64,000 bases of DNA from a virus, in the UHGV virus genome UHGV-0131811. The stretch is one strand, 5' to 3'. Of the stretch, positions 14,604-39,814 are shown piece after piece. Position 1 is the stretch's first letter; each line of letters starts with the position of its first letter. The notes under the pieces were generated by a model that was not told where the DNA came from, made no database searches, and saw only the letters and a list, made by a program, of their open reading frames with translations. The position numbers were made by a program, and so were the translations under genes.

Positions 14604-14995
14604 TCAAACACCACCTGACAAGGAACCTGTTTAGTAATAAATTCTTCGCAGTGTTCTTTAATGAAGTTTTGTAATGGCACACAATCTTGTGCACAAGTCA
14701 TTAGTATAATGTACTCTGGATTCATAATGTTTTCAAGAGTGTAGAAGACAACATCGTTAGATAATTCATGACCATCTTCTTCAGACCAAGTTCCAGAGAC
14801 TACAGCTAATTTGTCAAGCAATTCATTAGGTAACGCTACGCCATCTTCTACGGAATCACTTAGAACGTTGTCGCTGATGTACAATGTGAAGGTCGTATGG
14901 AATGTTGAATATCTTACGTGATTCTTTTCGCAAGAGCCACACTCTGAGGCATAATCTTTAATCCGCTCTAACTGTTTTTTGTTCAACTTAATCAT
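14600..14995 (-). CDS. hypothetical protein
   Basis: 131 aa ORF, 4-nt overlaps on both sides. Confidence 0.45.
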   Translation of the reverse strand: MIKLNKKQLERIKDYASECGSCEKNHVRYSTFHTTFTLYISDNVLSDSVEDGVALPNELLDKLAVVSGTWSEEDGHELSNDVVFYTLENIMNPEYIILMTCAQDCVPLQNFIKEHCEEFITKQVPCQVVFE

Positions 14996-15192
14996 AATTT
15001 CACCTTAGTTGGCAATGCACTGAATGTTATGACTAACCCTAAAAATGGTTTGAAGCATGACCATAAATCCATCTGACCCTGATATGCGAAACTCCATTGT
15101 GGGTCTGAAAAACCCCATACCATAACACTAACCCCAAAGAAGAAGATTAGAATGTGGAGAATGTATATCAACGCTTTTGATATTTTAAACAT
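14992..15192 (-). CDS. small membrane protein
   Basis: 66 aa, two hydrophobic segments. Confidence 0.4.
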   Translation of the reverse strand: MFKISKALIYILHILIFFFGVSVMVWGFSDPQWSFAYQGQMDLWSCFKPFLGLVITFSALPTKVKL

Positions 15193-19054: not shown

Positions 19055-19392
19055 AGTGTGATTTCTCCTTTCTTTATCATTTCTAAGGCTTGTTTTCTGT
19101 CTAAAACTTCCCAATTTTCTTTGTTAAACATCTCATAAGGTCTTGCGTAGATTTTACCATCTGCTGTAGAGATATAAGAGGCTCCAGTGACCCATAAGTC
19201 ATCATTCTGCTTTATCATGATACCTGTACTGCTCACATAGTACAATGTTTTGCGGGGTTTGTAGAGCAAGTATATTGGTCGCTCATGTTTTTCTATTAAA
19301 TCTTTCACGGTCTCTCCAAAGTTATTTTTAGAGGGTCTTTTACGACCCTCATAATTGTTAAAACTAAACACCACAACCCTCGCAATAAGCAT
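19051..19392 (-). CDS. hypothetical protein between nrdA and nrdB
   Basis: 113 aa ORF; ATGA overlap with nrdB. Confidence 0.45.
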   Translation of the reverse strand: MLIARVVVFSFNNYEGRKRPSKNNFGETVKDLIEKHERPIYLLYKPRKTLYYVSSTGIMIKQNDDLWVTGASYISTADGKIYARPYEMFNKENWEVLDRKQALEMIKKGEITL

Positions 19393-35625: not shown

Positions 35626-35844
35626 ATGAACAAAGAAGATAAGCATAAAAATACTGTACGAACTCCTGATGGAAAGGTTCAATCCTTCATCCTTACAGTT
35701 GGTGGAAAGCCATTTCGTTGCCACTGCGGAGCAAACTGTTTCCATAAACCAGATAAAAATGACTTAGAGCTTTACGCATGTAATGCTTGTGACACTTGGT
35801 ATCACTCAGAGGTGAAAAATGACAACACTGTACAAACAAAATAA
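35626..35844 (+). CDS. small Zn-finger-like protein
   Basis: CHCGANC...CNAC cysteine/histidine pattern. Confidence 0.45.
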   Translation: MNKEDKHKNTVRTPDGKVQSFILTVGGKPFRCHCGANCFHKPDKNDLELYACNACDTWYHSEVKNDNTVQTK

Positions 35845-36919
35845 AGACGGTTCCTTCAACATCTGGTCATGCGGTGCTATAGGTAACAAAGTTATTACAA
35901 CCTACGGTAAAGAAAATGGCAAGATGATGTTTGAAGAGTATACAGCAGAACCTAAAAACATCGGTAAAAAGAATGAGCGTAACGCTGAACAGCAAGCTCT
36001 CTTTGAAGTTGCTGCTAAGTATAAAAAGCAAGTTGACCGCAAAGGTTATGCTTACACAAAAGAGTCTGCACAGAATACTGAGAAGGTAGGTGTACAGCTT
36101 GCTCATGATGCTGCAAAGGTTAGTCATGCAAAGTATCTGAAGTTCCCTGCTGATGCTCAACCAAAACTTGATGGTGTTCGTTGTAGAATTTCAAGAGATG
36201 CTGATTCAGTTAGCTTCACGGCTTATTCTCGTGAGAATACTGTTTACAACGTCCCAGTAGAACTAATCCCAGATTTGCTTTTGTTGCTTAAATTACATCC
36301 ACAAGTCGAAGACTTTGATGGTGAGATTTATGCTCATGGTTGGGACTTAGAAGATATTGTGTCTATGATTAAGAATGCTGACAATCCAGACCGACATCTA
36401 CTCCAGTTCTACTGGTATGATATCTGTGACAGTGCTAAGACGTGGCCTGAGCGTAGAGATATTATTGAGACTTCACCATTGAATGACTTCAGAGACGGCT
36501 GTAAAGTTGTCCCTGTTAAGTCTCGTCGTGTTAACTCTTGGGAAGAGTTTGATGAAGCTCATGATAAGTGGGTTGAAGCTAAGTTTGAAGGTGCAATGTA
36601 CCGTTCAATCTCTGAAGACTCCTTCTATGAGTGTTGTCACCGTTCGTACTTCTTGATTAAGCACAAGAAGATGCACACTGAAGAGTTTAAAGTGACTGGT
36701 GTCAAGACTGATAAACGTGGTCATGGCAAGTTCGTTGTAGAGACTCTTCCTAATGTCTTTGTAGATGTCTCATGGAAGACTACTCATGAGAAGAAACAGT
36801 ATCTTGCTGAGCATCCTGATGAGTTTATCGGGAAGCCTTTAACGGTTCAGTTCCAGAAGATGACTCGTAAGGGCTCTTTACAGTTCCCTGTCGGGCTAGT
36901 TATTAGGGATTATGAATAA
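35819..36919 (+). CDS. ATP-dependent DNA ligase
   Basis: Adenylation motif I KLDGVR; about 366 aa. Confidence 0.7.
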   Translation: MTTLYKQNKDGSFNIWSCGAIGNKVITTYGKENGKMMFEEYTAEPKNIGKKNERNAEQQALFEVAAKYKKQVDRKGYAYTKESAQNTEKVGVQLAHDAAKVSHAKYLKFPADAQPKLDGVRCRISRDADSVSFTAYSRENTVYNVPVELIPDLLLLLKLHPQVEDFDGEIYAHGWDLEDIVSMIKNADNPDRHLLQFYWYDICDSAKTWPERRDIIETSPLNDFRDGCKVVPVKSRRVNSWEEFDEAHDKWVEAKFEGAMYRSISEDSFYECCHRSYFLIKHKKMHTEEFKVTGVKTDKRGHGKFVVETLPNVFVDVSWKTTHEKKQYLAEHPDEFIGKPLTVQFQKMTRKGSLQFPVGLVIRDYE

Positions 36920-36922
36920 ACT

Positions 36923-37069
36923 ATGTTAAGTACAATCATTCTGTTTGCATTAGTTATCTTTGTGTTGTCTTACATCACAAGTAAGCTTTTGAACACATCC
37001 TTTGCAATGGGTGTCTTGTTCACAATCTTCTGTTTTGTAACGCATATAGTTATCAGGACTTTTATATAA
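36923..37069 (+). CDS. small hydrophobic membrane protein (48 aa)
   Basis: Two hydrophobic segments; starts 4 nt after the ligase stop; preferred over antisense ORF 36950..37138. Confidence 0.35.
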   Translation: MLSTIILFALVIFVLSYITSKLLNTSFAMGVLFTIFCFVTHIVIRTFI

Positions 37070-37074
37070 AGTTG

Positions 37075-37102
37075 TTGACATAGAAAATTTGGTGAGTATA
37101 CT
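37075..37102 (+). promoter_or_regulatory. sigma70-like promoter (TTGACA-16 nt-TATACT) with inverted repeat overlapping -10
   Basis: Consensus -35 at 37075..37080 and -10 at 37097..37102; GGTGAGTA (37091..37098) pairs with TACTCACC (37123..37130). Confidence 0.5.
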
Positions 37103-37167
37103 GAGCAGCATAAACCAACGGGTACTCACCAACATCACTTAAGAGTCTTCTAAGAGGGTTTTTAAGT

Positions 37168-37262
37168 AATGTGATGTTTGGTTTGGTGTGGTCAGGTAAT
37201 GTGATGTCTGGTTTAGTGCGGTGATGTGCGGTCCGGTAAGGTCCGGTGCGGTAAAGTGCGGG
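37168..37262 (+). repeat. phased pentamer array A: 19 units with invariant GT every 5 nt
   Basis: Read directly: aatGT gatGT ttgGT ttgGT gtgGT cagGT ...; no open frame. Confidence 0.9.
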
Positions 37263-37302
37263 TAGTTAGTCTCAGCTACATTAAAATGAGACTTACCTTT
37301 TT
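37261..37302 (+). terminator. type-1 hairpin (AGTCTCA / GCTACATTAAAA / TGAGACT) followed by TTTTT
   Basis: 7-bp stem plus GGTA/TACC extension, then T-run; same loop with a different stem in locus 2. Confidence 0.45.
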
Positions 37303-37329
37303 AAAAGGTCTTTAAGAGGGTCTTTTAAT

Positions 37330-37399
37330 AAGGTGCTGTATGGTAAGGTGATGTCTGGTGTGGTAGGGTGAGGTTAAGTGAGGTGAGGTATGGGTGGAT
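37330..37399 (+). repeat. phased pentamer array B: 14 units NNGGT
   Basis: aagGT gctGT atgGT aagGT gatGT ctgGT gtgGT agGGT gagGT ... Confidence 0.9.
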
Positions 37400-37425
37400 G
37401 GTAGTAGCCACGTTAAAAATCTACC
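37400..37425 (+). other. type-2 hairpin (GGTAG / TAGCCACGTTAAAAAT / CTACC)
   Basis: 5-bp stem; locus-2 counterpart has GGCAG/CTGCC, a compensatory change. Confidence 0.4.
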
Positions 37426-37483
37426 AAGTTTCTAAAGAGTCTTCTGTTGAGGGTTCTTTACAAACAACTTAACAATCAACTAA

Positions 37484-38089
<606 letters not shown>

Positions 38090-38091
38090 TT

Positions 38092-38532
38092 ATGAATACA
38101 AAAGCATTAGCAGCAAAGTTTAGTTACGGTGACACTGTATCACACTCTGAGATGGATACCTTCTTAGGTATTGTGAAGCCAACTTATCAAGGTGACATTG
38201 TTAAGTACGAAGATGAAATGAAGGCTTATGCGCTTACACGTCTAAACCGACTTGAGAAATTTATTGAGAAGCTTCTTAAAGAAGAGAAGATTTATCTGGT
38301 TGCTTCAATGGGTGTTGGTTATCGTGTGGTTGAGCCTAAACATCAAGCAACTATTGCAAAACGCAAAATGTCTGGTAAGATTGGTCGAGCTTTAAAGCAA
38401 GCCACTCAAGCAATTGAGAATGTGAACACTATGGCACTTAGCCATCAAGAACGTTCACGACTGATTGAACAGCAAAACCATTTAGCTGCTATGAAAGCTA
38501 ACATTAACAAGCAACGCAGAAAACCTTTCTAA
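38092..38532 (+). CDS. hypothetical protein
   Basis: 146 aa helical ORF followed by terminator. Confidence 0.55.
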   Translation: MNTKALAAKFSYGDTVSHSEMDTFLGIVKPTYQGDIVKYEDEMKAYALTRLNRLEKFIEKLLKEEKIYLVASMGVGYRVVEPKHQATIAKRKMSGKIGRALKQATQAIENVNTMALSHQERSRLIEQQNHLAAMKANINKQRRKPF

Positions 38533-38543
38533 GTTGACTAGGT

Positions 38544-38566
38544 AGCCTCTTCGGAGGCTCCTTTTT
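38544..38566 (+). terminator. rho-independent terminator (AGCCTC-TTCG-GAGGCT plus T-run)
   Basis: GC stem with UUCG tetraloop then TTTTT; directly precedes repeat locus 2. Confidence 0.6.
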
Positions 38567-38594
38567 AAAAGGTCTTTAAAGAGGGTCTTTTAAT

Positions 38595-38664
38595 AAGGTA
38601 AGGCACGGTTATGTCAGGTATGGTACGGTACGGTTAGGTAAGGTGAGGCGGAGTAAGGTATGGG
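38595..38664 (+). repeat. phased pentamer array C: 14 units NNGGT
   Basis: aagGT aagGC acgGT tatGT cagGT atgGT acgGT acgGT tagGT ... Confidence 0.9.
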
Positions 38665-38666
38665 TA

Positions 38667-38697
38667 GTTAATCGGAGCTACATTAAAATTCGATTAC
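38667..38697 (+). other. type-1 hairpin (TAATCG / GAGCTACATTAAAATT / CGATTA)
   Basis: Loop core GCTACATTAAAAT as in locus 1, stem sequence different but still complementary. Confidence 0.4.
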
Positions 38698-38731
38698 ATC
38701 ACTTAAGAGTCTTTTAAGAGGGTTTTTAAGT

Positions 38732-38806
38732 GAGGTGTGGCACGGTAATGTTAGGTAGGGTCAGGTCAGGTCAGGTGAGGTAAGGTAAGGTGATGTATGG
38801 AAGGAT
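38732..38806 (+). repeat. phased pentamer array D: 15 units NNGGT
   Basis: gagGT gtgGC acgGT aatGT tagGT agGGT cagGT cagGT cagGT gagGT aagGT aagGT ... Confidence 0.9.
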
Positions 38807-38832
38807 GGCAGTAGCCTTATAAAAAATCTGCC
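38807..38832 (+). other. type-2 hairpin (GGCAG / TAGCCTTATAAAAAAT / CTGCC)
   Basis: Counterpart of 37400..37425 with compensatory stem change. Confidence 0.4.
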
Positions 38833-38851
38833 AAATAAGCTATAAAATCTG

Positions 38852-38880
38852 TTGACAAGTCAGGTGTTATAGCTTATTTT
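38852..38880 (+). promoter_or_regulatory. sigma70-like promoter (TTGACA-17 nt-TATTTT)
   Basis: Consensus -35 at 38852..38857; -10-like TATTTT at 38875..38880; upstream of gene 38925. Confidence 0.45.
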
Positions 38881-38924
38881 TATACTCAATGTAATACAAA
38901 ATTTAATATAACTTTGAGGTCATT

Positions 38925-39308
38925 ATGAAAAAGATTTTATTAGCCGCTGCAATGGTTATGGTAATGAACTTACCAGTCAATGCAACAGAACTTCCAAATG
39001 TGGACTTATCAGGTGTTCCAAAAGACACTTGCCAGATTGTTAAAGGTGTTGCTTTGACTAATGGTGAGTTACTTAAACCAATCTCTGAAGAGTCTTTAAC
39101 AGAGATGACTGATAAGGTAACTGACTATCAGTATCGTGTTCTTGCAGAGTATTTCCTGCAATCTGCAAACATTAAAGAGAAGCACCATGATGATATTGAT
39201 GTACAGGCGATGCTCAACCACCGTATCCAGTTTAAAGAAGATTTGATGCAAAAAGCTATGTATGGTGTTGAGTATTTCTTAGAAAACAGAAGCTGCACAG
39301 GTATTTGA
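38925..39308 (+). CDS. secreted/periplasmic protein
   Basis: Signal peptide (MKKILLAAAMVMVMNLPVNA) with likely cleavage after VNA; 127 aa. Confidence 0.55.
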   Translation: MKKILLAAAMVMVMNLPVNATELPNVDLSGVPKDTCQIVKGVALTNGELLKPISEESLTEMTDKVTDYQYRVLAEYFLQSANIKEKHHDDIDVQAMLNHRIQFKEDLMQKAMYGVEYFLENRSCTGI

Positions 39309-39309
39309 T

Positions 39310-39522
39310 ATGGCTCTTAAAAAGTTACATCCCAGAAGCGGTTATGGTAAGATAATTGACGATACAGACGGCTTTACAGTCTTTACAGTTATCTGTCAAG
39401 ATGATTCACAGATTGAAAAGGTTCTTGATGATTATCTTAATGATAAACGTGAAAAGGTTAGGGCTACAAACATAGATTCATTGATTGACACTTCACGTAA
39501 ACGGAAGAAGAAAGATGAATGA
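39310..39522 (+). CDS. hypothetical protein
   Basis: 70 aa ORF. Confidence 0.45.
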   Translation: MALKKLHPRSGYGKIIDDTDGFTVFTVICQDDSQIEKVLDDYLNDKREKVRATNIDSLIDTSRKRKKKDE

Positions 39523-39814
39523 GGTTTTTGACCCTTATGCTCCACAAGATGATTGGGAGGCTGATAGAGAGGCTGAAATGGAGAGTTATATTTGTCCAAT
39601 GGATGTAGACGAAATGAGAGACTTCGTTGCACATCGTTTTAAGAGAGAGATTAAATCCAGAGGTCTTTCTCAAGAACAAGTCGCTAAAATTTGTGGTATC
39701 TCTCAAGCTCGTGTATCCAACATAATCCACCTCACTGGGAATGTCTCTCTTGAGTATATGTTGGAAGTGTGTGAAAAATTTGGTGTTAATTTCAATTTAA
39801 GGTTGGCAGATTAA
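39515..39814 (+). CDS. helix-turn-helix DNA-binding protein
   Basis: LSQEQVAKICGISQARVSNI is an HTH-like segment; start at MNEVFDPY overlapping the upstream stop. Confidence 0.5.
   Translation: MNEVFDPYAPQDDWEADREAEMESYICPMDVDEMRDFVAHRFKREIKSRGLSQEQVAKICGISQARVSNIIHLTGNVSLEYMLEVCEKFGVNFNLRLAD

Follow-up and report, generated by a model that had tools for sequence, protein, structure and literature searches.

Positions 38544-38850 of the viral sequence analysed here (64,000 nucleotides, called the window when the whole 64-kb stretch is meant) were identified as the downstream guide-RNA array, made up of vrRNAs C and D, of a type II VIPR locus in a Felix O1-like phage, and we put the probability of this reading at about 95%. 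The assignment was made because the Vipr protein encoded beside the array is identical to SUSP1 Vipr at 190 of 195 residues (97%), the residues cited as holding G1, G2 and Y3 and clamping the DNA are conserved (H17, K33, R39, E71, M72, K82, G87, K88, R138, C173, D177, W178 and R179, all of them) and the vap1 product is 99% identical to its SUSP1 counterpart. The system itself is already known, since the element sits in the clade where VIPR was described.

VIPR stands for Viral Interference Programmable Repeat and was reported in two preprints of April 2026 (bioRxiv 10.64898/2026.04.26.720920, 10.64898/2026.04.26.720927). Its components are the RAMP protein Vipr, a vap accessory gene and the vrRNAs, which in their published form carry a pseudoknot tail 3' of 9-16 YNNGG repeats; on the vrRNA Vipr forms a polymer with one protomer per repeat, sequestering GGY and presenting NN, double-stranded DNA is recognised as NNx, each repeat skipping one base, and binding silences transcription (10.64898/2026.04.26.720920, 10.64898/2026.04.26.720927). 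In SUSP1 the expressed vrRNAs are ~100 nt long, are recovered together with Vipr and silence transcription, the guides of the SUSP1 clade are mostly aimed at a satellite phage in E. coli genomes, and the authors propose that the system predates CRISPR (10.64898/2026.04.26.720920, 10.64898/2026.04.26.720927). Satellites with vrRNAs are also mentioned there (bioRxiv VIPR preprints, April 2026).

If the phage studied here follows the SUSP1 mechanism, Vipr protomers would polymerise along each vrRNA, one per pentamer. Each GGY would be flipped out and held by Vipr, and the NN dinucleotides would be presented and would pair with double-stranded DNA reading NNxNNx..., one base being skipped per repeat; the bound filament would then block transcription. 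Expression of the vrRNAs as ~100-nt RNAs, formation of an RNP and silencing are expected in this phage by analogy with the preprints.

Identification of the protein was made by a profile search against PDB sequences, in which the 195-aa product matched entry 36pp_D, 'SUSP1 Vipr protein', with E=6e-81. Its AlphaFold (AF2) model had a pLDDT of 94, and the best PDB folds were the Csm3/Cas7 backbone subunits of type III and type VII CRISPR systems. The protein has 527 homologs and no Pfam domain. Pfam gave nothing meaningful for the two proteins bracketed by the arrays and PHROGs returned families of unknown function only, and neither a Cas family nor a ToxN-like family was found by Pfam in seven ORFs around the locus (35819-39814). 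The start of vipr is more likely the ATG at 37502, giving 195 aa, the length of the homologs, than the GTG at 37487. In distant contigs with vipr homologs at 41-49% identity, a partner gene of ~167 aa again lies 3' of vipr, and (GGYNN)n arrays adjoin vipr, on both flanks in one contig (L124) and clearly in the downstream intergenic gap in another (L125).

Residue 175 is V both in the window's Vipr and in the SUSP1 sequence (IMG/VR, L142), whereas the structural preprint names T175 as the Y3 contact (bioRxiv VIPR preprints, April 2026); this mismatch is probably a detail of numbering or text. Several other candidates were dropped once the protein was identified as Vipr, namely a TRAP-like sponge, a tRNA 3'-CCA sponge, an anti-Shine-Dalgarno sponge, G-quadruplexes, Chi-like GT-rich DNA and a ToxI-like antitoxin.

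Layout of the two array loci

Both strands of the window were scanned for GT in 5-nt phase, using segments of 60 nt. Four arrays were found, all on the + strand (37142-37280, 37304-37412, 38579-38677 and 38711-38819), with phase scores of 10-12 out of 12. All segments scoring at least 6 fell inside these arrays on the + strand; outside them, the maximum over the window was 5 on the + strand and 5 on the - strand, and no comparable GT-phase array was present in ~1 Mb of unrelated viral loci. The two GT-pentamer units which the earlier note on this DNA had placed at 38544-38850, and the two in its locus 1, are therefore real, with nothing similar elsewhere in the window.

Every unit has the same anatomy: a 5' hairpin (previously termed the leader), a run of pentamers and a 3' structure (previously termed the hairpin), which we read as an H-type pseudoknot. 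In each pentamer, positions 1-3 are the constant GGY and positions 4-5 the free NN. The segment 38544-38850 thus holds two tandem units on the + strand, each running from hairpin through 13-14 GGY+NN pentamers to pseudoknot, and locus 1 holds two further units. The features, all on the + strand, are:

37075-37102, + strand: sigma-70-like promoter TTGACA-16-TATACT upstream of locus 1, 11 of 12 consensus matches
37137-37167, + strand: 5' hairpin, leader type 1, before vrRNA A (-10.1 kcal/mol, z -2.95)
37165-37293, + strand: vrRNA A, 19 GGY/NN repeats (37165-37259) and type-1 pseudoknot tail (37260-37293)
37296-37333, + strand: 5' hairpin, leader type 2, before vrRNA B (from folding and pair conservation)
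37332-37425, + strand: vrRNA B, 12 repeats (37332-37391) and type-2 pseudoknot tail (37392-37425)
37433-37460, + strand: third copy of the hairpin element, between vrRNA B and vipr (from folding and pair conservation)
37502-38089, + strand: vipr, 195-aa RAMP/Cas7-like protein (from PDB profile match, SUSP1 identity and fold)
38092-38532, + strand: vap1 accessory gene, 146 aa, 99.3% identical to the SUSP1 gene downstream of vipr
38544-38566, + strand: intrinsic terminator-like hairpin and T run after vap1, hairpin AGCCTCTTCGGAGGCT (38544-38559) followed by the T run
38560-38598, + strand: 5' hairpin, leader type 2, before vrRNA C (-12.2 kcal/mol, z -2.96)
38597-38695, + strand: vrRNA C, 13 repeats (38597-38661) and type-1 tail (38662-38695), AAUCGGA/UUCGAUU variant
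38700-38732, + strand: 5' hairpin, leader type 1, before vrRNA D (-10.4 kcal/mol, z -3.42)
38729-38832, + strand: vrRNA D, 14 repeats (38729-38798) and type-2 tail (38799-38832), AAGG/CCUU and GGCAG/CUGCC variant
38833-38879, + strand: AT-rich hairpin and T run closing locus 2 (read from the sequence)

The repeat counts of B (12), C (13) and D (14) are inside the published range of 9-16, and that of A (19) is outside it. Much of what had been noted about this layout was borne out: the terminator before locus 2 is present at 38544-38559 with its T run, CAGGT stands three times in tandem in array D, and the two loci bracket two genes, now recognised as vipr and vap1, with which the arrays belong. 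The module combinations were also as described, namely leader 1-array A-tail 1 and leader 2-array B-tail 2 in locus 1, and leader 2-array C-tail 1 and leader 1-array D-tail 2 in locus 2. What had been called a shuffled module order is better described as a tail type set by position, tail 1 being internal and tail 2 last in the array. Each tail-1 variant travels with the hairpin 3' of that tail, and the constant blocks of tail and hairpin are ~75 nt long and of several types; the variable parts between them are pentamer-periodic.

No canonical promoter was found for locus 2, and the terminator lies directly upstream of vrRNA C. The hairpin that closes locus 2 (38833-38879) has 13 bp, AAATAAGCTATAA / TTATAGCTTATTT, and its 21-nt loop holds the -35 element TTGACA (38852) of the next gene's promoter. 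At the promoter of locus 1, an inverted repeat, GGTGAGTA (37091-37098) ... TACTCACC (37123-37130), spans the -10 element and the start region; it could be an operator. No match to Rfam 15 was obtained for the whole window at gathering thresholds, and a search of the literature on Felixounavirus non-coding RNA and on Felix O1/wV8 direct repeats returned nothing relevant.

Predicted guide targets in E. coli satellites and probable loss of the cassette

The relatives of the window are Felix O1-like phages (Ounavirinae), with Salmonella phage SeKF_63 as the best match (98%); locus 2 of E. coli phage ASO1B is identical to that of the window. Between related phages the arrays are hypervariable although their flanks are 90-98% identical, and the number of vrRNA units per phage ranges from 1 to 5. 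In 73 unique arrays from these phages we counted 7-20 repeats, with a mode of 12, and array lengths differed by multiples of five. Conservation was 76% at G1 (non-G in 24% of repeats), 98.5% at G2 and 100% at Y3; the entropy at N4/N5 was 1.9 bits, and the final NN was usually AT. The earlier note had described the region as non-coding, with the 5-nt phase conserved and not the sequence, and this holds. It had explained the phase by periodic contacts, and in the published SUSP1 structures there is indeed one Vipr protomer per GGY. That explanation was right but incomplete, as the guide-RNA nature of the arrays and the targeting information in NN had been missed: what had been taken for array differences in detail are NN dinucleotides that carry information and would specify satellite DNA targets.

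When 5,426 complete E. coli genomes were searched with the locus by BLAST, tail-like sequence turned up in 150 chromosomes. Three of these regions were examined (L207 4868-16939, L208 and L209) and proved to be ~12-kb satellites with recombinase, baseplate, tape-measure and HNH genes and a lone vrRNA that has a tail 2 of the phage type. This vrRNA has its own sigma-70-like promoter, TTGAC(G/A)-N17-TA(T/A)(A/G)AT, and neither vipr nor vap was detected by tblastn in the three satellites. Together with four IMG/VR contigs they gave the seven satellite-type loci that were scored.

The four guides were decoded by the 1-nt-skip rule and are predicted, from sequence matches, to be aimed at this ~12-kb satellite element of E. 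coli chromosomes. In guide A, NN 10-18 matched at 18 of 18 bases in the tape-measure gene of satellites L207, L209 and L210, and NN 1-10 matched at 19 of 20 in a 203-aa ORF of satellite variants L211 (8756-8784, - strand) and L212. The first 10 NN of guide B matched perfectly (20/20) in a satellite CDS annotated as 'transposase'. Guide C reached 23 of 24 NN bases (one mismatch) at L207 14591-14625 on the - strand; this stretch has no annotation, appears to be non-coding and lies ~370 nt from the vrRNA of the satellite, and the target is present in only one of the seven satellite-type loci examined. Guide D reached 23 of 26 (three mismatches) in a hypothetical-protein gene in six of the seven loci scored. 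The predicted NNx target sequences are AACTCTTAACAGATAACTACCTAGAAAGAAGGGAA for C and GATGCTACCAATTACAGACAGCAACATGAAAAGATTGG for D; an exact-pattern scan of IMG/VR for the target of vrRNA C gave no match. The C target and the satellite vrRNA (about 14992-15084) both lie in a 2.6-kb stretch of L207 (13356-16012) that has no annotated gene or long ORF.

The guides matched the satellite solely under the 1-nt-skip rule: with skip lengths of 0, 2 and 3 the best scores were 15-22 matched bases, which is background. Among 200 order-shuffled versions of guides B, C and D the top scores were 19-21. With the long guide A one shuffle reached 26, the same as the score of the full-length guide, and it is the 18/18 sub-window that stands out. 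The best hits to the 64-kb window itself were 16-23 of a possible 22-36, again background, and thus no self-target was seen in it. Across related phages, 36 of 72 arrays scored at least 18/20 against the seven satellite-type loci, compared with 0 of 72 after shuffling. Between satellite variants the bases at skipped positions vary and the NN bases hold. The NN adjoining the tail was never matched in any target and is therefore part of the scaffold. By arithmetic on the annotated frames, guide B and the 3' half of guide A skip the wobble base, guide D skips codon position 2 and the 5' half of A skips position 1.

These matches suggest that vrRNA A is a fusion of two guides, each with a specificity of its own. 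An origin of vrRNA A by a 30-nt internal duplication was also considered and rejected, as the repetition in its NN pattern corresponds to a repeat within the target.

By megablast, vipr-vap was present at 95-99% identity in 118 of 231 related phage records and absent from 113; the Salmonella phages are mostly of the type that lacks it. The vrRNA layout was read in two of the 113, Felix O1 (L215 2440-2660) and VpaE1_ev78 (L216). Both have a promoter, hairpin 1, one vrRNA and tail 2 without vipr or vap, and this orphan unit occupies the same site as the VIPR locus of the window. In Felix O1 it is preceded by the same promoter as locus 1, and the inverted repeat described above is kept there as well. 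A deletion between the two leader-1 hairpins of the window, which stand in direct orientation, would be expected to leave just this layout. Scored against the seven satellite-type loci, the orphan vrRNAs of Felix O1 and VpaE1_ev78 gave background only.

The idea that the two loci recombine and that the genes between them form a cassette thus gains partial support from the 113 records without vipr-vap and from the two that keep one unit at the same site. The same facts, the range of 1 to 5 units per phage and the two direct leader-1 copies could also be taken to mean that the loci are recombination substrates flanking a mobile two-gene cassette and that the arrays have no function of their own. 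We consider this very unlikely, because GGY conservation combined with near-maximal NN entropy across a GC content of 39-65% argues for function, and the NN code matches satellite DNA specifically. With the arrays read as guides, guide turnover and loss of the cassette probably come about through recombination at the conserved blocks, which is not the purpose of the arrays themselves. An orphan vrRNA might be a relic or might act in trans, using the Vipr of a co-infecting phage.

RNA structure of the units and DNA-level readings

A hairpin of 12-14 bp with a loop of 3-4 nt, rich in G.U pairs, precedes each vrRNA and also vipr (37137-37167, 37296-37333, 37433-37460, 38560-38598 and 38700-38732). 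These hairpins fold better than shuffled sequences (z -1.8 to -3.4). Their stem sequences are of three types, with compensatory changes between the types; across the 40 hairpin variants compared, 12 consensus pairs are kept, four of them with compensatory changes. Several G.U pairs are invariant and make sense only as RNA of this strand. We found no description of this hairpin in the text of the two VIPR preprints. We infer that it marks the boundaries of the units, serving in processing or halting the filament at its 5' end; by analogy, as a boundary or processing signal it could be the counterpart of the hammerhead ribozymes of other VIPR types. The leader motif had also been considered as a general class of phage promoter, which was rejected since the motif is confined to the VIPR locus; a look-alike at 19328 is an ordinary hairpin.

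The pseudoknots were examined by counting pairs in the unique tail sequences of related phages together with the satellite copies. Type 1, with S1 GUAG/CUAC and S2 AGUCUCA/UGAGACU or AAUCGGA/UYCGAUU, was 100% paired and showed three compensatory pairs. Type 2, with S1 GUGG/CCAC or AAGG/CCUU and S2 GGUAG/CUACC or GGCAG/CUGCC, was 95.6% paired with four compensatory pairs. When the partners were slid by 1-3 columns as a control, pairing fell to 24-47%. Both tails covary as pseudoknots.

The arrays also keep to one strand in distant relatives. Among 80 loci with Vipr homologs, spanning GC contents of 39-65%, 194 GG-pentamer arrays were on the strand of the gene and 3 on the other. In one locus (L180 884-1173, - strand) three arrays lie upstream of vipr on the opposite strand. 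In a distant VIPR locus of high GC content (L125, 5100-5710), each array is followed by a tail with the same GGGTGGATGG..GCAGCC core and an inserted T-arm-like hairpin (GGTTCGAnTCC).

Public records describe parts of the vrRNAs as 'DR_4' repeats (wV8, L001) and as a 'possible binding site of StbAB' (KhF3, L002). Such labels, and the fact that the units are short, tandem and non-coding, would suit repeats bound by a protein at the DNA level, as in iterons, a partition site or an origin. Against this stand the strand asymmetry of 194 to 3 arrays, the covariation of the flanking helices as RNA pseudoknots and the reliance of the 5' hairpins on conserved G.U pairs that exist only in RNA of this strand; moreover, no known iteron has a period of 5 bp with two free bases and the adjacent protein is a solved RNA-binding RAMP, so that DNA-level repeats are extremely improbable. 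A decayed tandem duplication of coding sequence, or a cryptic small-peptide gene, is no more credible, for although short ORFs overlap the arrays (e.g. 37368-37472), none is conserved, a 5-nt period cannot hold a reading frame, array lengths vary by multiples of five (7-20 repeats) and variation is concentrated at pentamer positions 4 and 5, not at every third base. In the ASO1B record (L214) the hairpin and vrRNA elements are labelled rho-independent terminators, and in the records of wV8, KhF3 and ASO1B vipr and vap are labelled hypothetical proteins.

Significance and comparison with known systems

The window brings no new principle; it is an independent recovery of the VIPR system from sequence alone, in which periodic arrays were seen in raw DNA and then tied to the solved Vipr protein, and the published targeting rule was replicated on independently decoded guides. 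VIPR is a recently reported form of RNA-guided DNA recognition with a non-contiguous code and a very small protein. Public annotations ('hypothetical protein', repeats, terminators) can now be corrected, and from the decoded guides it can be predicted which variants of the satellite are open to silencing by this phage. The 5' hairpin, the vrRNA with two targets and the orphan vrRNA of the Felix O1 type are not mentioned in the text of the VIPR preprint and offer handles on vrRNA biogenesis and guide turnover. Whether the three together throw new light on the making and evolution of type II vrRNA arrays is rather doubtful in our view, though they may do so.

The closest known system is the type II VIPR locus of SUSP1. 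Shared with it are the proteins (Vipr 97% and Vap1 99% identical), GGY/NN pentamers with a 3' pseudoknot, the same tail sequences, arrays that flank vipr-vap on the same strand, and guides that match the same kind of E. coli satellite by a 1-nt skip without a self-target (here in the 64-kb window). The two differ in arrangement, with two upstream and two downstream vrRNAs in this phage and one and three, respectively, in SUSP1, and in guide content, including a vrRNA A of 19 repeats with two target matches; in addition, the skipped base falls at the wobble position in only two of the four coding targets here.

The backbone of class 1 CRISPR effectors, Cas7/Csm3 on crRNA, resembles VIPR in the RAMP fold with its G-rich loop and thumb, in having one protomer per fixed RNA step with bases flipped out periodically, and in a variable guide that is capped by a conserved structured handle, the variable parts being arrayed between conserved blocks. 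In class 1 CRISPR, however, the step is 6 nt with five bases read, whereas in VIPR it is 5 nt with three sequestered and two read. VIPR has no cas1/cas2, no repeat-spacer array and no effector nuclease, is encoded by a phage, and its target is dsDNA read as NNx triplets. A CRISPR array proper consists of identical direct repeats of 24-40 nt with unique spacers near cas genes including cas1/cas2, and the present locus is not of that kind.

Two further RNA systems are similar in outline. In the Bacillus trp leader, the TRAP oligomer contacts a (G/U)AG triplet in single-stranded RNA about every 5 nt, with free spacers, so that it shares with VIPR a protein oligomer on a conserved single-stranded RNA triplet at a spacing of ~5 nt; TRAP, however, regulates attenuation as a closed ring of 11 subunits, no targeting information resides in its spacers and its fold is unrelated to that of Vipr. 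ToxI/ToxN, a type III toxin-antitoxin system, likewise has tandem pseudoknot RNA units behind a promoter and upstream of a gene for a protein of ~170-200 aa. Its ToxI units are near-identical 36-nt repeats without a hypervariable part, whereas the repeats described here are not near-identical and their partner has the RAMP/Cas7 fold and no ToxN-like Pfam match.
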